A DNA stretch of 20,251 bases. Origin: an uncultured cyanobacterium. GTDB taxonomy: Bacteria > Cyanobacteriota > Cyanobacteriia > Cyanobacteriales > Microcystaceae. The stretch is taken from positions 1 to 20,251 of the forward strand of contig CAWEDJ010000043.1 of NCBI GenBank assembly GCA_963807635.1, in the 5' to 3' direction. Position numbers and translations under genes: made by a program. Shown here piece after piece: positions 1,051 to 19,079 of this stretch (position 1 is its first letter; the number at the start of each line of letters is the position of its first letter). Below the pieces are notes generated by a model. That model was not told the DNA's origin, searched no databases, and saw only the letters and a list, made by a program, of their open reading frames with translations.

Positions 1051-2445
1051 CTAAGCAAATTGCTCGGCAGCAACCCAGGCTCCATGAAAACCGTAGGGGA
1101 CTCGTTGGGGCATGATAATTCTGGCGATCGCGGGTTGGGTAAAGTTTTGAGCATCTAAAACAATTAACTCGGATTGCTCAGAGGCTTCGTGATAAACAAA
1201 AGTCAATAACCAACCATGATCTTCGGAATTTGCTTGGGGATGGGGAACAAACACCGCTTCTCCGCCATAACAATGGGGTTCAAAGGAATGAATTTCGGTT
1301 TTGCCCGTTTCTAGGTCATATTTAAGCAACCCATCAAATAAGGGCATTTCTCCCAATTGGGACTTTCCTGCATAGCCGTAACGATTTTTACGTCCTAAAT
1401 ATTTTTCATTAATCCGAGGAAATTCACAGGCCAGATCCCCTAAAGATTTTTCTTGAACGGCTCCTGTTTGTAGATTAAATCGCCACTCATAAAGATAGGG
1501 AATATTACCCGTACTATTAGCGTTTTCTTCAAAAATTCCTAAAGCATTGGTTGATTCCATACGACAGGCAATCAAAATGACCTCGTCTTCCGATTCATAG
1601 GCATTCAGGGTATGGAAACCGTAGCAACTAGGACTCTCGAACCAACGAATATCCGACGATTCACCATGACGGGGCAAAATGCCAAAACGACTGGGGGTTT
1701 CTGCTTCAAATAAAAACATGGGTTGACCCTGAGCCATGCGTTCTGGTCGGAAAGTTAAAGGAAAATCCAGAAAAATGGTGTAGTGTTCCGTAATGGCAAA
1801 ATCGTGCATCATTACGCCGACGGGCAATTCAATGGGAATCAATTTCACCAATTCGCCTTCGGGGGAAACAATACCGTATTGCAAAAAGGGCGGTTGAAAC
1901 AGAGAATAACCAAAAAAGAGCATTTCTCCTGTGACGGGATCAACTTTGGGGTGGGCAGTAAAAGCGGAAGTGAGCTTACCCTCAAAGTTTACGGGGCCTA
2001 CGGTATCTAGGGAGGGTAATTGAATTTGATGGGGTTCTCCTCCTTCCCAAACGGCCAAAAATTTACCACTATGCCAGACCAGCGCGGTATTTGCGGTATT
2101 TTTTCCTAGCCCGTAGGGATTATCTAATTGGGGCGGCTCTAATAAACCCGACCAGATGGCTTTTCCTGCTTCCTGTTCTTTTTCAAAGCCAAAGGTGCGG
2201 ATGTAGCGATTGTGATAACTGGCTTGTCCATTTTCAATACGCACACCATGTAACATTCCATCTCCGTCAAACCAATGGTATTGACCGATAGGGGGAAATT
2301 GGGGATTTGGCCCATTACGGACAAACATTCCGTTTAATTCGGGCGGAATTTCACCGATGATTTTGAGATTCTCTGCTTGAATTTCGGTTTCAACAGGAGC
2401 AAAGTTATCGAGTAAATAGGGATTGGTCGCCGTAATAGTGGTCAT
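1051..2445 (-). CDS. Carotenoid cleavage dioxygenase (RPE65/CCD family)
   Basis: 464 aa; RNGPNP, HWFDGDGM, four iron-binding His motifs (TAHPK, MMHDF, FHTLN, GFHG), EFPRIN, GGEAVFVP. Confidence 0.92.
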   Translation of the reverse strand: MTTITATNPYLLDNFAPVETEIQAENLKIIGEIPPELNGMFVRNGPNPQFPPIGQYHWFDGDGMLHGVRIENGQASYHNRYIRTFGFEKEQEAGKAIWSGLLEPPQLDNPYGLGKNTANTALVWHSGKFLAVWEGGEPHQIQLPSLDTVGPVNFEGKLTSAFTAHPKVDPVTGEMLFFGYSLFQPPFLQYGIVSPEGELVKLIPIELPVGVMMHDFAITEHYTIFLDFPLTFRPERMAQGQPMFLFEAETPSRFGILPRHGESSDIRWFESPSCYGFHTLNAYESEDEVILIACRMESTNALGIFEENANSTGNIPYLYEWRFNLQTGAVQEKSLGDLACEFPRINEKYLGRKNRYGYAGKSQLGEMPLFDGLLKYDLETGKTEIHSFEPHCYGGEAVFVPHPQANSEDHGWLLTFVYHEASEQSELIVLDAQNFTQPAIARIIMPQRVPYGFHGAWVAAEQFA

Positions 2446-2529: not shown

Positions 2530-2570
2530 GCGATCGCGTTTTTTGAATGGGGAGTTAAAAGGGCGATCGC
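2530..2570 (+). repeat. HIP1-bounded 41 bp repeat, copy 1
   Basis: GCGATCGC-GTTTTTTGAATGGGGAGTTAAAAGG-GCGATCGC; near-identical copies at 3234 and 3923. Confidence 0.95.
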
Positions 2571-2621
2571 GGATAATCTCTTAAAATAGAGAAAACCAAA
2601 TATTGCAGAGAGAAAGAAACT

Positions 2622-3200
2622 ATGGCAACCACCGCAGACGACGTATGGCGACTGTTAGCAGAATTAACCACTGCTCAAAAAGAGACCGACCTACGACAAA
2701 AAGAAACTGATCGCCAAATTAAAGAATTAGGCAAACAAACCGATCGCCAACTCAAAGAATTAGGGAAACAAATTGGGGGACTCGGTTCAAAATTTGGTAG
2801 CTTTACCGAGGGTCTAGCCCTTCCTTCAATGGAAACGATTCTAAGAAAACGCTTTGGTATGGAAGTTATCAGCCCCAGTGTGCGAGCCAGTAAAGGAGGG
2901 AACCACATAGAAATTGATGTCCTTGCCTATGCCAATGGTAATTTGAATATTGCCTATGTCGTCGAGGTTAAAAGTCATGCTAGGGAAGATTCTATTACTC
3001 AATTAAAAAGTATTTTGCAACGTTTTCGTACCTTTTTCCCTGAACACAAAGATAAACAACTCTATGGCATTTTAGCCGCCGTTGATATGTCCCCTGAGTT
3101 ACGCCAAAAAACGCTACAAGAAGGATTTTACGTGGCTCGGATTCACGACCAAGTTTTTGAACTCGATACGCCTGAAAACTTTCAACCCCAAAGTTATTGA
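2622..3200 (+). CDS. DUF3782-type protein: N-terminal coiled coil plus PD-(D/E)XK nuclease-like domain
   Basis: 192 aa; KETDRQ coiled-coil repeats, GGLGSKFGSFTEGLALPS, EIDVL...VVEVKS catalytic-like motif. Confidence 0.8.
   Translation: MATTADDVWRLLAELTTAQKETDLRQKETDRQIKELGKQTDRQLKELGKQIGGLGSKFGSFTEGLALPSMETILRKRFGMEVISPSVRASKGGNHIEIDVLAYANGNLNIAYVVEVKSHAREDSITQLKSILQRFRTFFPEHKDKQLYGILAAVDMSPELRQKTLQEGFYVARIHDQVFELDTPENFQPQSY
2706..2771 (+). repeat. Intragenic 33 bp tandem duplication encoding TDRQ(I/L)KELGKQ twice
   Basis: ACTGATCGCCAAATTAAAGAATTAGGCAAACAA followed by ACCGATCGCCAACTCAAAGAATTAGGGAAACAA. Confidence 0.85.
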
Positions 3201-3233
3201 ATTTTTTCAATTTAGTCGATTTACAACTGGGGT

Positions 3234-3274
3234 GCGATCGCGTTTTTTGAATGGGGAGTTAAAAGGGCGATCAC
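3234..3274 (+). repeat. HIP1-bounded 41 bp repeat, copy 2
   Basis: Identical to copy 1 except the second HIP1 reads GCGATCAC. Confidence 0.95.
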
Positions 3275-3276
3275 GT

Positions 3277-3606
3277 CTAAATAGAAACAGTAACCTTATT
3301 CGGTAGATAACCCCATTCTTGAAACTGAGTTTGTAATTCAGGAACGTTACAAAAAGCTAAAAAGTATAAATATTCTGGCGCAAAATCTGCACCATTTTGC
3401 CAACAAACTGTCCCTAATTCCTGATCAAGTTCAAATTGTTGAAACAGTAATAAATCTTGTAAAGGTTCAAAGACTTTACCTGTCAAACTTTCAGATAAAT
3501 CTGCTATGCCCTCAGAACCATTGTTAAATTTTAAGGCAATTTTATAATTGTCAACGTAACTAGCAGAAATAATATGCAAAAACATTAGTTTACTCCAATG
3601 GTTCAA
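3277..3606 (-). CDS. DUF2442 domain protein (putative antitoxin)
   Basis: YKIALKFNNGSEGIADL, FEPLQD, GTVCWQNGADFAPEYLY motifs; directly downstream of and overlapping a DUF4160 gene. True start may be the second Met (MFLHII). Confidence 0.85.
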   Translation of the reverse strand: MNHWSKLMFLHIISASYVDNYKIALKFNNGSEGIADLSESLTGKVFEPLQDLLLFQQFELDQELGTVCWQNGADFAPEYLYFLAFCNVPELQTQFQEWGYLPNKVTVSI

Positions 3607-3847
3607 TCCAATTAAGAATTTCGCGCTGACGACATAGTTTCCAATTAGTCGCTAGTTCAGATTGATGAAGATCGTGCCACTCTAAAACATGACGGAGAGA
3701 TCGCTTGGGAAATGATCCCGTGACGACTGCAGTCTCGATTTCAACAATCACCTCGTATTGTCCATATTTAGCATGGTAATGAGGTGGTAAATGATCATTC
3801 CAGTAGAAGCTAATCGTAATTCCTAAAAATCGACTAACAACAGGCAT
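3590..3847 (-). CDS. DUF4160 domain protein (putative HicA-like/DhiT-like toxin)
   Basis: 85 aa; MPVVSRFLGI, DHLPPHYHAKY, W...H..EL..NW, C-terminal IEPLE are typical of DUF4160. Confidence 0.88.
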   Translation of the reverse strand: MPVVSRFLGITISFYWNDHLPPHYHAKYGQYEVIVEIETAVVTGSFPKRSLRHVLEWHDLHQSELATNWKLCRQREILNWIEPLE

Positions 3848-3883
3848 TTTTAAGTAAAATAGGTAAGTTGTTCAAAGTTTAAC

Positions 3884-3912
3884 ATTCTATCGCCTCTTTG
3901 GACGTGACTCAA
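3884..3912 (-). promoter_or_regulatory. Putative sigma70-type promoter of the DUF4160/DUF2442 operon
   Basis: Minus strand TTGAGT-17 nt-TAGAAT, ending 36 nt upstream of the ATG at 3847. Confidence 0.55.
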
Positions 3913-3922
3913 TAGAAATAAA

Positions 3923-3962
3923 GCGATCGCATTTTTGGAATGGGGAGTTAAAGGGCGATCGC
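3923..3962 (+). repeat. HIP1-bounded 40 bp repeat, copy 3
   Basis: GCGATCGC-ATTTTTGGAATGGGGAGTTAAAGG-GCGATCGC; two substitutions and a 1 nt deletion relative to copy 1. Confidence 0.93.
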
Positions 3963-4068: not shown

Positions 4069-5508
4069 GTGCCACTAGCAAACTATAACCCCGAATCCTT
4101 TTATGATGAACTATTTTCCGACTTAGGTTCACCCCGTCCCCACGCCGCCTCCTTAATCCAGTGGATGCAAAATCTGCCAACCGAATCTCTACAACAACAC
4201 CACGAAACCGCCCAATTAGCCCTATTCAACCTCGGTGTAACCTTTAGGGTTTACAGCGACCAGCAAGGTGTAGAACGAATCTTTCCCTTTGATATTATTC
4301 CCCGCATTATTGACGCTGACGATTGGCAAGCCCTAGAAAAAGCCCTCAAACAAAGAATTAAAGCCTTAAATTGCTTCTTAACCGATATCTATGGCCCCCA
4401 ACAAATCATTAAAGACGGCAAAATTCCCCTAGAAATCATTGAATCCGCCAGTGGTTTTCTCAAGCCCTGTTTAGGGATTACCCCACCTGCGGGAGTTTGG
4501 TGTCATATTACGGGAACAGATTTAGTCAGAGACAAAGACGGAACCTGGTATGTATTAGAAGATAATTTGCGCGTTCCATCGGGAATATCCTATGTTTTAG
4601 AAAATCGGCGGGTCATGAAAAGCACCTTTCCCGAAATCTTCCAAACCATGAATATCCAGCCCGTTGATGACTATCCCAGTCATTTACTGGAAACCTTGCT
4701 CAACCTAGCCCCGCCCCGTTTACCCAATCCCAGGGTCGTCGTCCTCAGTCCTGGCATTTACAATTCAGCCTATTTTGAACATTCCTTCCTAGCTCAACAA
4801 ATGGGCGTGGAATTAGTCGAAGGTCGCGATTTAATCGTCGTGGATGGTTATCTACAAATGCGGACAACCAAAGGTTTAGAGCGCGTGGATGTGATTTATC
4901 GTCGTTTGGATGATGAATTTTTAGACCCCCAAGTATTTCGTCCTGACTCCTTCTTAGGGGTTCCTGGGTTAATGGAAGTTTATCGTCAAGGTCGAGTTGC
5001 CTTAGCCAATGCGCCTGGTACAGGGGTTGCCGATGATAAGGTCATCTATGCCTATGTGCCTGACATGATTCGTTATTATCTGGATGAAGAACCTCTACTC
5101 GCCAGTGTCCCGACCTATTTATGTTGGCGAGAAAAAGACCGAAACTATGTCTTAGATCATTTATCGGAGTTGGTGGTGAAATCGGCCAATGAAGCGGGGG
5201 GTTATGGAATGCTGATCGGGCCAAGTTCTACCGCCGCAGAACGGGAAGAATTTGCCGATAAAATTAGGACTCATCCCCGCAATTATATTGCTCAACCTGT
5301 GTTAAGTTTATCCCGTGTACCAACTTTAATTGATGGAAATATTGAAGGTCGTCATGTGGATTTACGTCCCTATATTCTCAATCGGGGTGAAGAAATTTAT
5401 GTTCATCCAGGCGGATTAACCCGTGTCGCCTTAAACAAAGGATCATTAGTCGTTAATTCTTCCCAGGGCGGTGGCAGTAAAGATATCTGGGTTTTGAGTA
5501 AGTCCTAA
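4069..5508 (+). CDS. Circularly permuted type 2 ATP-grasp protein
   Basis: 479 aa, GTG start with GAGGAG RBS; FPFDIIPR, LEDNLRVPSGISY, NSAYFEHSFLA, RHVDLRPY, VVNSSQGGGSKD. Confidence 0.93.
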   Translation: MPLANYNPESFYDELFSDLGSPRPHAASLIQWMQNLPTESLQQHHETAQLALFNLGVTFRVYSDQQGVERIFPFDIIPRIIDADDWQALEKALKQRIKALNCFLTDIYGPQQIIKDGKIPLEIIESASGFLKPCLGITPPAGVWCHITGTDLVRDKDGTWYVLEDNLRVPSGISYVLENRRVMKSTFPEIFQTMNIQPVDDYPSHLLETLLNLAPPRLPNPRVVVLSPGIYNSAYFEHSFLAQQMGVELVEGRDLIVVDGYLQMRTTKGLERVDVIYRRLDDEFLDPQVFRPDSFLGVPGLMEVYRQGRVALANAPGTGVADDKVIYAYVPDMIRYYLDEEPLLASVPTYLCWREKDRNYVLDHLSELVVKSANEAGGYGMLIGPSSTAAEREEFADKIRTHPRNYIAQPVLSLSRVPTLIDGNIEGRHVDLRPYILNRGEEIYVHPGGLTRVALNKGSLVVNSSQGGGSKDIWVLSKS

Positions 5509-8843: not shown

Positions 8844-9677
8844 ATGACTCTTTCCCTTGATAAAACGAACCTAGCGATCGATTGGGAACTTCTCCCCGCC
8901 GATTACATTTTACCAGATGATCCTGTGGATAATGATACTCAACCCCTATTAGCCGAAGCCCTCAGAGAAGGCATTACGGAAGCTCAACTCCTTAAATCCA
9001 CTGGATTTATTGCTACCAATTTCGGAATTTGCTTGCGAGTGGCGGGCAAATTTGTTATCAAAGCTCCTGATTGGGTTTGGGTGCAAGAAACAAAAGAACA
9101 ACGCTCTGGCCGTCGTAGTTATACACCCCACCGAGAAGGAGATTTACCCCAGATAGTGATGGAATTTCTCTCAGAAACCGATGGTGGAGAATATTCTGTC
9201 TATCCTAATTTTCCCTACGGTAAATGGTACTACTATGAACAACTACTAAAAGTTCCCTATTACTGTATTTTTGAACCAGAAAGAGGACATCTGGAATGTT
9301 ATGTTTGGAAGCAAGGACATTATCAACCGTTGACTCCTAATGAGCAGGGTCTATTTTGGATAGAAACTCTAAATCTATTTTTAGGAGTTTGGCAAGGAGA
9401 AAGAGCCGCTCGCCAGGGCTATTGGTTGCGGTGGTGGAATGCTTCAGCAGAATTATTATTGTGGGGCAACGAAACAGCCCAGCAAGAACGTTTGAAGGCA
9501 GAACAGTCCCAACAAATTGCAGAACAAGCTCAACAAATTGCAGACCAGGCTCTTCAGGAATTAGAACAGGAGCGTCTGAAGGTTGTGCAAGCTCTTCAGG
9601 AAGCAGAACAACAAAAACAACAGGCTCGACGGTTAGCTGAAAAATTGAGAGAGTTAGGAGTTGATCCTAATAGCTGA
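8844..9677 (+). CDS. Uma2 family (DUF820) endonuclease-like protein with coiled-coil tail
   Basis: LPDDPVDN..QP, KAPDW, VMEFLS, WLRWW, C-terminal RLAEKLRELGVDP. Confidence 0.88.
   Translation: MTLSLDKTNLAIDWELLPADYILPDDPVDNDTQPLLAEALREGITEAQLLKSTGFIATNFGICLRVAGKFVIKAPDWVWVQETKEQRSGRRSYTPHREGDLPQIVMEFLSETDGGEYSVYPNFPYGKWYYYEQLLKVPYYCIFEPERGHLECYVWKQGHYQPLTPNEQGLFWIETLNLFLGVWQGERAARQGYWLRWWNASAELLLWGNETAQQERLKAEQSQQIAEQAQQIADQALQELEQERLKVVQALQEAEQQKQQARRLAEKLRELGVDPNS
9498..9551 (+). repeat. Intragenic 21 bp (heptad) tandem repeat in Uma2 tail
   Basis: GCAGAACAGTCCCAACAAATT / GCAGAACAAGCTCAACAAATT / GCAGACCAGGCT. Confidence 0.7.
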
Positions 9678-13350: not shown

Positions 13351-14506
13351 ATGACAAATTCTCAAGACGATCCCTACGATTGGATAGATCAATCTCTCTC
13401 AACGATTCATCAGGCTAACTGGTATCGATCGCCGAAATCCCTTACCAGTCCACCAGGCCCCGTGATTGAAATTGACGGTCAATCTCTCATTAATTTTGCC
13501 AGTAATGATTATCTGGGTTTAGCGACTGATCCCCGTCTCAAACAAGCCGCGATCGCCGCCGTCGAGGAATGGGGAACGGGTAGCACAGGCTCACGGCTCC
13601 TCAGTGGCCATCGACCGATTCATCAAGCCCTAGAAAACGCGATCGCCGAATTCAAACAAACCGAAGCGGCCCTCGTTTTTAGTTCGGGTTATTTAGCCAA
13701 CCTGGGAACGATTACGGCATTAGTCTGGCCAACGGGATTTAATCTTAAGCGATCAATATAACCATTCCAGCCTTAAAAACGGAGCCAAGCTGAGTAGTGC
13801 AGTAATTATCGAATATGAACATCAAAATATATTAGATTTAGCTGAAAAATTGGCAAAAAACCGTCATCAATACCGACGTTGCCTCATCTTAAGTGACAGT
13901 ATTTTTAGCATGGATGGCGATGCCTGCCCCTTACCCGACTTGATTAATTTGGCCCAAACCCATCATTCTATGCTCCTCACTGATGAAGCCCATGCAACGG
14001 GAGTGATGGGAAAAACAGGCGCGGGAATTGTCGAGCATTTTGACTGTCAAAGGGAAGGCATTGTCCAAATCGGAACCTTGAGTAAAGCCCTGGGAAGCTT
14101 GGGGGGATACGTCGCAGGGAGTGCCAAATTAATTGACTATTTACGCAATCGTGCCGCCACTTGGATTTATACAACAGGTCTTTCTCCCGCCGATACCGCC
14201 GCCGCCCTAGAAGCCATACAAGTTATTCACCAAGAACCCCAACGTCGCCAAAAATTATGGGAAAATGTCGCTTTTTTTAAACAACACTTGGGACAATTAG
14301 ATTTTTTTCCGACCGATTCCCCGATTCTATGTTTAAAATCAGGTAAAACAGAAGATGCTCTAAAACTTTCTGAAAAACTTCGTCAAGCAGGAATTTTTGT
14401 TCCCGCCATACGCCCCCCAACAGTTCCCAGTAGCCGATTGCGCTTCTCCCTCATGGCAACCCATGACTTAGATCACATCCAAAAGCTCGTAACTGCCTTG
14501 CAATAG
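13351..14506 (+). pseudogene. bioF: 8-amino-7-oxononanoate synthase with one extra base at about 13726 (real frameshift or sequence error)
   Basis: First part [28 protein letters not shown]; removing one base gives [19 protein letters not shown] continuing into [28 protein letters not shown]. Confidence 0.88.
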
Positions 14507-14765
14507 AAGATAGAGGGGTTTGAGTTAAAATGAGATTTCTTGCAAAAACTTATCCTAACTAGACAAGACATCACGAAGAGAAAAAACGTCATAGACTATT
14601 CCGACTAACGGTTTGGCATAACGTCTCCCGAAAATTCGGTCAATGTCTTAGGGCTTGGGTGTAAAAAAACTTAACACTAATCTATTTCATATCAACCATC
14701 AAACAGGCAAAATAGGATCATCTTTCGTTTCTTCAGTCACCAATCTTTCATTTAATCCTTGCTCA

Positions 14766-17551
14766 ATGCGCTGTCTCAATTGCCATCAGGAAGAAATCCC
14801 CTCCACTGCGGAATATTGTCCCCAGTGCAAGATTCACTTTCCCTCTTTATTACGAGATGTTTTAGCGCAAGAAACCTTACTCCGCAACCAAACCTACCGC
14901 CTGGATTATGCCCTGGGAAGGGGAAGCTTTGGCATTACCTATCAAGCTCACCACACCGCTTTAAATGAAGTTTTTGCGATCAAGGAATTCTATCCGATTG
15001 AATTTGCGATGCGCAATCAAGTCAATCAGTCGGTAATTATCCCTGATAATTCTGAAAATGCCTATCGTCGCGGATTACAACGGTTCATGGGAGAGGGGCG
15101 CATTCTGGCGAAATTAAATCACCCCTATGTAGTGCGTGTCCACGATATGTTTGAGGACAATGATACAGCCTATATGGTGATGGATTTGGTCAAGGGCAGA
15201 ACCCTACGCTACATTCTCAAAAAACAGCAGGGCCATCGGTTTTCTTTACCAAAAGTAGAAAGCATCTTGGGACAAATTGTTGAGGCTCTAACGGCAATCC
15301 ATCAATCAGGAATTTATCACCTAGACCTCAAACCTGAAAATGTCATTTTGACTCCAGAGAATAAAATTTGCTTGATTGATTTTGGGGCGGCTAGACAGGT
15401 GATCGATTCTCGGCGCATGGAAACCCGCTTGTTTACGGAAAATTATGCGGCTCCTGAAATTATAACGGGGGGGGAATTGGGCCTGAAAGTGATTTATTTG
15501 AGTTGGGGATGATGCTCCATCAATTACTGACAGGGAAACTTCCTCCCCCTGCGATGAAGCGTTTAAATGAGCAGAACGATTGGCATCCAGAGGGATTAAT
15601 TGCACCTTGGGATAGGCTAGTTATATCTGCTTTACAGTTGAATCGCAGCGATCGCCCTGCTAGTGTTCGAGAGTGGTGGGAAGCGGGTTTCCAGTCATTA
15701 CAGGAAAGAAACGGTAACGGGCATTATACTGTCGCTCCAACCATAGAGACGCTACGGGGTCAATTTCCCCTATCGGATCTTCTTCAGGAGGGAATGCAGA
15801 AGCGTTTTGGGCGGGGTGTCATCCGAAAAGTATTGACCCTTTCTCAAGATTTGGTGGTGGTCATTGCCGCAGGAGGAGCGACACTTTTTCAGTTATCAAC
15901 GGCGAAGGCTCTTTGGGAAGTGGATTGTCCCGTCGATTGTGGAAGCCTGAGTCCCGATCATAAATTGTTGATTTTAGTGTTTCAGCAATGGGTTTATATT
16001 TGGGAAATGTCAACAGGCAGACTCGTTCAACAATTTCAAGGCCATGAACAACCGATTTGTCAGGTGGTCTGTAGTCATCAGGATCAATTATTTTTCTGTG
16101 GACACAAGAGCGAAACTGTTACTGCCTGGGATGCCCGTTCAGGAGAAGCCTTTAAGCAATTTTTTAAACCGATGGGTGCGATCGCGCAACTTGCCGTCAG
16201 TGGAAGCGGAAAATATTTAGCAACGGGTAGCCTGGACGGAAATGTTTATCTTTGGGATGTAGAAAAAGGTCGAGAAATCTGCTCACTCCAAGGACACGAA
16301 CAAAGCATTGAAAGTTTAGCTTTTAGTCCCAATGAACAACTCCTCGCCTCTGGGAGTCGCGACAATACCATTCAACTCTGGTCACTTCCCACCACAAAAC
16401 CTCTAAAAAGATTAAAGGGACACCTGGACTGGGTGAAAAACCTCGTGTTTAGTCAGGATAACCGTTTACTCGCCTCTAGCTCTGGCATTCAGGACAAAAC
16501 CATTCGCCTTTGGCACTTGAGCGAAGGTCAGGAAATTCAACGCTTTCAGGGACACGAAAATACCATTATTTCCCTCGACTTTTGTCCGCAAAATCGCTAT
16601 CTTGTCTCTGGTAGTTATGATCAAACCATTAAAGTGTGGGATGTCGTCCAGGGCAAGGAATATCGTTCCCTAAAACAACATCATAATTGGGTCTATGGCG
16701 TTGCCTGTAGTCCCAATGGCAAAAGAATTGCGACGGCAAATAATGATCGGATGATCCACCTCTGGAAAGTCACAGACGGCTCGGAAGCAGGGTTATTAGA
16801 AGGCCATCGAGATGCAGTAACGAGTGTGACCTTTAGCCCAGATAATCAATATCTTTTGTCGGGGGGTTGGGATCATACCGTCAGATTATGGGATATTTCC
16901 CTCGGTATGGTAGTCAGAACCTTTTCGGAACATACCGATTGGATCAGTGCGGTTGCCATTAGTTCTAATTGTAAATATTTAGCTTCGGCGAGTCTGGATA
17001 AGACGGTCAGAATTTGGGATGTGTCATCGGGATGGTTAGCGTTACTTGGCAATAAATCCCTACGCATTTTGAAGGGACATTTAGACCAAGTTACCAGTCT
17101 CGCCTTTAGTCCTGATAGTCGATTACTGGTGTCGGGCAGTAAGGATCAAACCCTGCGTCTATGGGAAGTGGATTCGGGGCAGGAAATTCATAATTTTAGT
17201 GGTCATCACCACAATGTTAAATGTGTCGCCTTTAGTCCCGATGGCGAATTTCTAGCCTCTGGTAGTTGGGATGAAAGTGTTAGAATTTGGCATATTGCCT
17301 CTCAAAAACAGATTAAACCCTCCTTTATCCATTCCAGCTACGTTAATACCCTGGCTTATACTCCCGATGGTCAATTTTTAGCCGCAGGGGGACGAGATGG
17401 ACTAATTTTTATTTGGGATGTTCTATTGGGTAAGCAAATCCACAAATTACACGGTCACACGAATCGGATTAATTCCTTGGCCTTTCACCCCCAGAGTGGA
17501 GAACTAATTTCGGCGGATCAAGATGGTGTGGTGAGGCTGTGGAGGATATAA
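14766..17551 (+). pseudogene. Zn-ribbon / Ser-Thr kinase / WD40-repeat protein, missing one base at about 15467-15481
   Basis: ORF pieces 14766-15512 and 15503-17551. CxxC..CxxC, GRGSFG, AIKE, HLDLKPEN, DFG, YAAPE in the first frame; GPESDLFELGMMLHQLLTG..P and DRP (subdomains IX-XI) plus about a dozen GH..WD repeats in the second frame. Confidence 0.85.
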
Positions 17552-18343: not shown

Positions 18344-18679
18344 TTAACTATCCGAACTTCTCTCGTAAAAGATAAGACCAACACGGTTAATGTGATCAAT
18401 TAAATCGAGATTCTCAATATCCTTAAAAATAGATATATCAAAACTATAGGGCAATAACAGATCATCAATTTGTATGTCAATTTTCGACAATTGAGCGTAA
18501 CTAATATTTTCGCCAATTAAAGTTAAATCAATATCGGAACCATTGCGATAATTTCCTTTAGCACGGGAACCATACAATAATACTTTTTGAATATTGGGAT
18601 ACTGGGAAAATACTTCAATAATCTTTTCAATTGTAGCTTCTTTTAAACCAAATCGATTTGTAATATTTTTAGCTTTCAT
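18344..18679 (-). CDS. Minimal nucleotidyltransferase (MNT) antitoxin
   Basis: 111 aa; LYGSRAKGNYRNGSDIDL (GS-x10-DxD); overlaps the HEPN gene. Confidence 0.9.
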   Translation of the reverse strand: MKAKNITNRFGLKEATIEKIIEVFSQYPNIQKVLLYGSRAKGNYRNGSDIDLTLIGENISYAQLSKIDIQIDDLLLPYSFDISIFKDIENLDLIDHINRVGLIFYERSSDS

Positions 18680-19079
18680 TTTCCAAAATCTGCATTTTTT
18701 CTTCTAATTCTTTAAATAAAACAAAAAATCGAGTGGTAATATTTTCCGCGATCGCTTTGGCTGTGACTTTATTATAGGTATGACTCGTTTGATTGCGGTC
18801 TTTAATCATATCCATCCAACTGTCACCATCCTTAATTAAGCCAACACTAAAAGCAATGCGGGTTGCATCCCTAGAACCGTATATATCTTGAGTTCCCTGA
18901 TCACGCAAATAATCTCGTAATAGATTCCAAGCAAGTTCATGAGTGTATTCAAAGGATTGAATTAAACCCTGTTCTTCTAGTTCATTTAATTCTCCTTTTT
19001 CGATGAATTTTGTGAGTTGCGCTAGGGCTTTCTTATAGTTAGAAAATCTTTGTTTCCAACGAATATCGGACTCTCTCAT
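18669..19079 (-). CDS. HEPN-domain toxin (HI0074-like nucleotidyltransferase substrate-binding protein)
   Basis: 136 aa; IRWKQRFSNY, GLIQSFEYTHELAW, RNQTSHTY (R-x4-H); AGGAG RBS at 19089-19093. Confidence 0.9.
   Translation of the reverse strand: MRESDIRWKQRFSNYKKALAQLTKFIEKGELNELEEQGLIQSFEYTHELAWNLLRDYLRDQGTQDIYGSRDATRIAFSVGLIKDGDSWMDMIKDRNQTSHTYNKVTAKAIAENITTRFFVLFKELEEKMQILENES

Follow-up and report, generated by a model that had tools for sequence, protein, structure and literature searches.

What HIP1 does has stayed an open question for three decades, as the available parts of two accounts put it (PMC5861425, PMC13756078). The recombination events that have been linked to it include HIP1-flanked excision of smtB in Synechococcus PCC 6301 (Gupta 1993) and HIP1 plasmid recombination in PCC 7002 (Akiyama 1998), both as cited in the accessible portions of PMC13756078 and PMC4390886, and HIP1 is described as promoting excision and integration in the part of PMC9239245 that was at hand. 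The accessible text of a preprint gives integration up to 7-fold higher at homologous HIP1 sites and more than 100-fold higher if these are methylated (bioRxiv 10.1101/2024.09.10.611283). Periodicity of HIP1 is treated at the scale of tens of kb in the available portion of PMC5861425, which makes no mention of 30-nt pairing. The HIP1-mediated events described in such excerpts share with the locus reported here breakpoints at GCGATCGC, the loss or gain of a gene-sized segment and no element-encoded enzyme. As far as these excerpts go, the earlier cases are single events or engineered constructs, whereas here there are multi-cassette arrays at many loci, in which, unlike the earlier cases, HIP1 sites come in pairs and their locus-specific spacers are duplicated.

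Short joints between gene cassettes are also known from other systems. The pdif sites of plasmids have XerC and XerD arms around a short spacer. In the pdif/dif modules of Acinetobacter plasmids such short sites flank single-gene or toxin-antitoxin (TA) modules, as they do here, recombination is host-encoded, and rearrangements join sites whose spacers are identical or nearly so (PMC13141974, from the part available). Here, in contrast to pdif, HIP1 forms the arms, the spacer has 12–34 nt of free sequence, the location is chromosomal and the orientation is mostly direct. The attC sites of integrons carry the core motif RYYYAAC ... GTTRRRY and span a size range longer than that of the HIP1 modules. 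Chromosomal integrons and CALINs, in the portion of PMC4889954 available, resemble our arrays in being TA-rich, in holding one unit per interval, in having similar joints within an array and in varying in order between strains; they differ in that the arrays here have no IntI, attC cores or hairpin covariation, carry cassettes in both orientations and have joints that vary by locus. The SDR5 repeats of Nostocaceae are short DNA inserted within HIP1, which makes them similar to a 21-nt insert of the source genome and unlike the repeat at our locus, which has a 33-nt period, sits at a single locus and brackets genes (PMC4390886, PMC5861425 and PMC13756078, each in excerpt). The openly accessible full-text literature that was searched held no description of such HIP1-jointed arrays.

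The window is a 20,251-nt stretch of an uncultured, Snowella-like cyanobacterium, taken from an assembly of 4.03 Mb that is 93.7% complete and has 4738 HIP1 sites. Its close relatives are Snowella or Merismopediaceae, and we compared this source genome (G000) with 40 relatives, giving 41 genomes. Three direct repeats, none with an assigned strand, start at 2530, 3234 and 3923, with the spacings of 704 and 689 nt that the initial annotation had claimed. R1 (2530..2570), at the left edge of a DUF3782 unit, consists of HIP1, a 25-nt spacer and HIP1. R2 (3234..3274) has the identical 25-nt spacer, and its right end reads GCGATCAC, one mismatch from HIP1. R3 (3923..3962), at the right edge of the array, has three spacer differences and is 40 nt long, so that the reported repeat size of 41 bp is right for R1 and R2 and wrong for R3.

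A 21-nt core of the repeat was found in the 4.03-Mb assembly as two exact matches and one with two mismatches, all at the window locus, and the next-best matches have four mismatches. Because the core is confined to these three sites, the window repeats are not due to chance. The same search speaks against a dispersed repeat of SDR5 type, to which the initial annotation had pointed, since it returned only the three window copies, at one locus and with a period of 32–33 nt; scattering of the repeat independently of gene boundaries, set beforehand as a test of the proposal, came out negative in the same way. Two further identities were rejected. An Rfam scan of the window gave four weak matches far under threshold, and R1–R3 were therefore dropped as a known RNA family, and they are unlikely to be terminators because all three modules point one way, whether the genes around them diverge or converge, and the terminator scan lists none there. 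A metagenome pattern scan for the HIP1-spacer-HIP1 module gave 0 matches. Four public runs were compared as contigs, two of which (X1 and X2) are apparently the same data. The contigs of three runs diverge from the window exactly before base 2530, and one run has a 719-nt contig that spans exactly 3234–3951, its listed pieces being without close-identity flanking genes. Neither an excised circle nor a skip junction appeared in the contigs of the four runs, a form of data that drops rare forms.

ORFs and Pfam matches bore out the proposal that each interval holds one accessory unit. Unit 1 (2571..3233, plus strand, inner HIP1 to inner HIP1) comprises a leader and an ORF at 2622–3200 whose 192-aa product matches Pfam DUF3782 (PF12644, E 1e-6). 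The Atlas neighbours of this protein are DUF3782/DUF8196, with NERD and Hjc in minor shares, and a search of the PDB with it gave no significant match; a nuclease fold is a putative lead. Microcystis carries the DUF3782 gene in multiple copies, and the gene is present too in Chromatiaceae and Methylococcaceae. Among the 50 of 79 loci examined, HIP1 lies 55–73 nt before the DUF3782 start in 8 of 10 Snowella loci and almost never does so in Microcystis copies.

Unit 2 (3275..3922, minus strand) is a DhiT/DhiA-like TA pair, in which DUF4160 (3590–3847) is followed by DUF2442 (3277–3606, with the ATG at 3585 the likelier start). The DUF2442 stop does lie 2 nt from R2 (3277 vs 3274), as had been noted. 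This gene order, DUF4160 and then DUF2442, is that of the DhiTA type II TA arrangement, and both NCBIfam scores are below their cut-offs (DhiT, 65.7 bits against 100; DhiA, 33.8 bits against 200). Unit 2 has its domain pair and toxin-first order in common with DhiTA of Dickeya dadantii as described in the available part of PMC8198452; it differs in its shorter antitoxin and in those sub-threshold scores. A sigma70-like site with 9/12 consensus matches is present upstream (3912–3884, minus strand). The pair's own promoter, as claimed, is thus present as a consensus match only, because five such sites were found where 3.6 are expected.

The array is flanked, as context only, by a carotenoid oxygenase gene of the RPE65 family (the dioxygenase; 1051..2445, minus strand) on the left and a circularly permuted ATP-grasp gene (4069..5508, plus strand) on the right. 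Both genes are conserved, as the initial annotation held, but they are adjacent only in G000, G003 and G004, and have other neighbours in G001, G002 and G005. No recombinase or transposase was found in the window, where 19 of the 43 listed ORFs were scanned against Pfam, in agreement with the earlier claim. Elsewhere the window contains a TA-like pair of a nucleotidyltransferase and a HEPN-like gene without such repeats (18344–19079), a putative Uma2-family endonuclease with a coiled-coil tail (8844–9677), and two genes that each appear split into two ORFs by a frameshift or an assembly error: one that we take to be bioF-like (13351–14506) and another that is presumably a kinase-WD40 gene (14655–17551).

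Relatives show true cassette behaviour at the window locus. The order in G004 is flank, module, TA unit, module and ATP-grasp gene, and unit 1 is missing exactly, edge to edge. This locus spans two contigs, split upstream by an IS-like insertion whose 8-nt duplication ties them together. The TA unit is identical between G000 and G004 at 642/648 nt (99%) and the ATP-grasp leader at 412/438 (94%); the two spacers in G004 share one sequence, which departs from the window spacer at 5 of 25 positions. The order in G003 is unit 1, a module, an extra 3.3-kb RTX/Calx-beta ORF, a different spacer, the TA unit and a module, and this last module, at the R3 position, equals the R1/R2 spacer of the window. 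The extra ORF (L016:3711-6644, 977 aa) lies at the middle module and is apparently without a start; the cargo ends with a spacer of another type, which has reverse polarity. In G001 and G005 one HIP1 stands alone at the R1 position, upstream of the dioxygenase; next comes either a GGDEF gene or a DUF3782 gene that has no downstream HIP1. Among the 40 relatives we found neither an allele with a single module between the dioxygenase and the ATP-grasp gene nor a fully empty one. The junctions at this locus place the relatives' breakpoints at HIP1, and the other test set beforehand, breakpoints elsewhere in relatives, thus also came out negative. The idea that the repeat is a recombination site for cassette gain and loss thus stands for the unit boundaries, given the empty site in G004 and the extra cargo in G003; the 41-mer, with its locus-specific spacer, is no site for recombination in general, and the shared element is HIP1 itself.

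The cassette design is genome-wide, with spacers specific to each locus. Intergenic perfect HIP1 pairs in G000, with genes called by a crude ORF rule, number 101 at 20–39 nt, 4 at 40–54 nt and 26 at 55–69 nt, and the spacers of such modules are diverse, 12–34 nt long, with an inward T-run next to HIP1. G000 was compared with 60 stretches of G004 (1.13 Mb of ~4.6 Mb, picked by contig number and not by content), with 745 kb aligned at 93.7% identity. When one HIP1 of a pair was allowed to read GTGATCGC or GCGATCAC, 143 intergenic pairs were counted, 26 of them testable. Synteny with G004 breaks at 19 of these 26 (16/23 separate loci), compared with 38/140 lone intergenic HIP1 sites and 83/446 random intergenic sites (Fisher p on the 26 pairs, 2e-5 and 9e-9, respectively).

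Local direct repeats anchored at HIP1 were present at 47/3018 site pairs, where random inter-contig pairs predict 0.8; 41 of the 47 are distinct, and their lengths are 18–131 nt. Since some of the 47 are paralogue ends or REP-like repeats, a search for repeats without a HIP1 anchor is the fairer control. It yielded 72 locus-specific intergenic repeats (90 minus 18 dispersed ones), 26 of which hold HIP1 in both copies, against ~6 expected, and 12 of those 26 have copies 620–760 nt apart. A TA family was present in 13 of 18 bracketed loci, which were picked by hand from the 41.

The abundance of close HIP1 pairs varies between genomes. Pair counts at 27–34 nt versus 88–95 nt were 89/37 in G000, 128/56 in G003, 133/44 in G004 and 355/144 in G014, an excess of 2.3–3.0 fold; G001 (52/35) has an excess of 1.5, and G030 counts were 51/25. 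G002 (20/23) and G005 (18/28) belong to the same genus yet have no excess. The ratio is near 1, or the counts are too few, in most of the 41 genomes, a set that includes kin and hence non-independent genomes.

We traced eight bracketed loci through five congeners. Comparable arrays elsewhere are shuffled, in support of the initial annotation. At C103, G000 has DUF433/DUF5615 followed by a ParE-type pair; G003 has these cassettes (95–97%) at another locus in the opposite order, with HigBA between them and with tandem empty modules. At C98, upstream of a core gene, the arrangement is A-B in G000 and A in G001; in G004, A-B is followed by another A on the far side of a contig break, and in G002 and G005 the repeated DNA is present once, as a resident copy. 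The C98 spacer copies the resident sequence to the right of HIP1, including the start of the downstream core gene (L173), which we take to be glyS-like, and the C93 repeat copies the 3' end of another core gene (L177), presumably tsaD-like and split in the source assembly. Because they are copied from resident core-gene sequence, the C98 and C93 repeats are not dispersed elements. At C10, a different cassette occupies the same HIP1 boundaries in G004, and the cassettes of C73 and C23 are found again, bordered by HIP1, at other loci.

These data show cassettes gained, lost and reordered as one-unit blocks at HIP1 sites, the behaviour by which an integron or CALIN is judged. Spacers match on both sides of many cassettes, and insertions without a match also exist. 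In G004 the C46 cassette lies elsewhere, with a single, spacer-free HIP1 site on either side; the orthologous flank in G003 carries tandem spacers and no cassette. In some cases (e.g., the ParE cassette in G001 and G003, and the C23 cassette) the spacer moves with the cassette and is not target-duplicated. HIP1 borders are missing from the C93 pair and the HigBA copy of C42 in G004, and from older copies (79–82%) in G002, G004 and G005. Bracketed TA pairs also occur in G014, of which 260 kb was sampled. G038 and G032, from two other families of the order (L248–L251), have module-bracketed PIN, MazF and HigB-like pairs, with up to six modules in tandem.

HIP1 accounts for a minority of change, and most indels and most TA operons are without HIP1 bounds. 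Clean indels relative to G004 had HIP1 at both junctions in 2/47 and at one junction in 4/47, and neither of two HIP1 insertions in G004 had its spacer duplicated. TA-like units that had not been used as seeds had HIP1 at both ends in 6/38, against 42/718 controls (p 0.03), and touched a module in 3/38, against 41/718 (p 0.48).

What we observe, then, is boundaries at HIP1, spacers specific to locus and strain, matching spacers round a recently exchanged cassette, and reordering. We infer that the repeat functions in recombination and is not just a scar left by insertion, and R1–R3 are likely the joints at which units are swapped in a gene-cassette system that extends across the genome. The reading that we favour, with a probability of about 0.5, is that the repeats mark unit boundaries and likely arose by host crossover inside HIP1 with duplication of the spacer. 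The moving unit would be any HIP1-to-HIP1 segment, which would probably arrive by natural transformation, and its target would be a resident HIP1 pair ~30 bp apart. Joining would be crosswise, with the left end of the segment going to the right-hand HIP1 of the pair and its right end to the left-hand one, and it may proceed via staggered nicks or by crossed exchange between chromosome copies. The predicted product is module-cargo-module with the resident spacer duplicated, after which the 41-bp homology together with HIP1 would allow cassettes to be lost, duplicated and reordered. The likely reason for the predominance of TA cargo is that such units bring their own promoter and resist being lost. 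The patchiness of the pair excess, which is absent in G002 and G005, counts against this reading and is not obviously explained by plain host machinery.

That patchiness would be accounted for by a dedicated, lineage-restricted HIP1-specific nickase or recombinase that acts in trans and duplicates the spacer as Cas1-Cas2 does the CRISPR repeat, a source that we regard as possible, if rather doubtful. The sharp 20–39 nt size window of the HIP1 pairs and the conserved inward T-run beside HIP1 are consistent with such an enzyme, as is a dispersed insert within HIP1. This insert has a 21-nt period and 19 copies at up to 3 mismatches (e.g., C67:24637, C60:32577 and C27:12408 of the source genome), with the right HIP1 mostly reading GTGATCGC. 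Its exact pattern tracks the pair excess, being present in 5/41 genomes (G000, G001, G003, G004 and G014); it shows no target homology beyond HIP1, and its junction mismatches place the exchange no earlier than the third base of HIP1. The insert fits the description of SDR5, which the available part of PMC5861425 gives as not found outside Nostocaceae.

The search for an enzyme argues the other way. For integron integrase, the best TIGR02249 match in the 93.7%-complete source assembly scored 48.3 bits against a cut-off of 265, and none of the five congeners has IntI (0/5), and a Cas1 profile found no match in G000, G003, G004 or G014. HIP1 was at both ends of 0/857 repeated segments of at least 150 nt, a test for autonomous elements by which a composite transposon or MITE-flanked element was also rejected, as no autonomous multi-copy element has HIP1 ends. 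Because IntI, Cas1 and HIP1-ended autonomous elements were not found, a dedicated enzyme is left without a candidate. The variable repeat lengths (18–131 nt) and the bracketed cassettes of G038, which has no pair excess, also speak against it. The source genome has six PF00589 tyrosine recombinase matches, one of them split and none near modules, and two C5 methyltransferases; by eye, no nuclease was recognisable beside the 443-aa one. Among other observations in this genome, a tyrosine-recombinase-like gene (C93:17120-18979) is convergent with a dprA-like gene and seemingly without the first catalytic Arg, a RIT-like tyrosine recombinase trio lies in a foreign-looking stretch (C28:104000-116000) that may be an island or bin contamination, and C58 and C59 carry the same genes twice with many broken frames, possibly a strain mixture in the assembly.

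The modules could instead be by-products, with spacers that hop locally into HIP1 or are homogenised by gene conversion, repeats that are scars, and genes that move by ordinary homologous or illegitimate recombination. We consider this unlikely, since the C98 and C93 repeats copy resident core-gene sequence and not dispersed elements, and since the order swaps and the A-B-A arrangement fall exactly at the repeats. The tandem empty modules, the spacer-free C46 cassette in G004 and the disregard of HIP1 by most indels would suit by-products, as would the existence of two dispersed spacer families, one being the 19-copy insert and the other having a 23-nt period and 8 copies (C28:40861, C46:52428, C41:66152 and others).

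A decayed integron or CALIN with degenerated attC sites, for which full-length IntI in 6/41 related genomes and a TA-rich, shuffled cargo like that of chromosomal integrons (PMC4889954, in the part available) might speak, is largely refuted and very improbable, in that the genus has no IntI, the modules are shorter than attC, attC core pairs number 0/3 in the window and 0/102 among intergenic modules, no Rfam match came near threshold, and an attC-like hairpin was ruled out by the missing cores and by pairing within modules that equals pairing across modules (mean z -0.13, 94 spacers); the term integron-like, used in the initial annotation, therefore suits the one-unit gain, loss and reordering, and not the IntI and attC features tested.

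The HIP1-jointed cassette architecture is real, genome-wide and apparently undescribed, and, short of a dedicated enzyme being found, it ranks as a variant of HIP1 recombination and of cassette systems that are already known. Tentatively, and against the balance of probability, it might be an undescribed gene-capture system in which a HIP1-directed enzyme makes staggered cuts at two HIP1 sites ~30 bp apart, accepts any HIP1-ended segment and duplicates the spacer. Were this true, integron-like TA and defence arrays would build up, with no integrase, at dozens of places in the chromosome, and HIP1 would have a concrete role in horizontal gene capture. The substrate (HIP1-spacer-HIP1) is defined, the product is predicted, and module-rich and module-poor species contrast within one genus, so that a role of HIP1 in recombination is directly testable. 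The architecture could also suggest homology-arm-free integration for cyanobacterial engineering, and it may explain part of the spread of small TA and nuclease-like genes in bloom-forming cyanobacteria.
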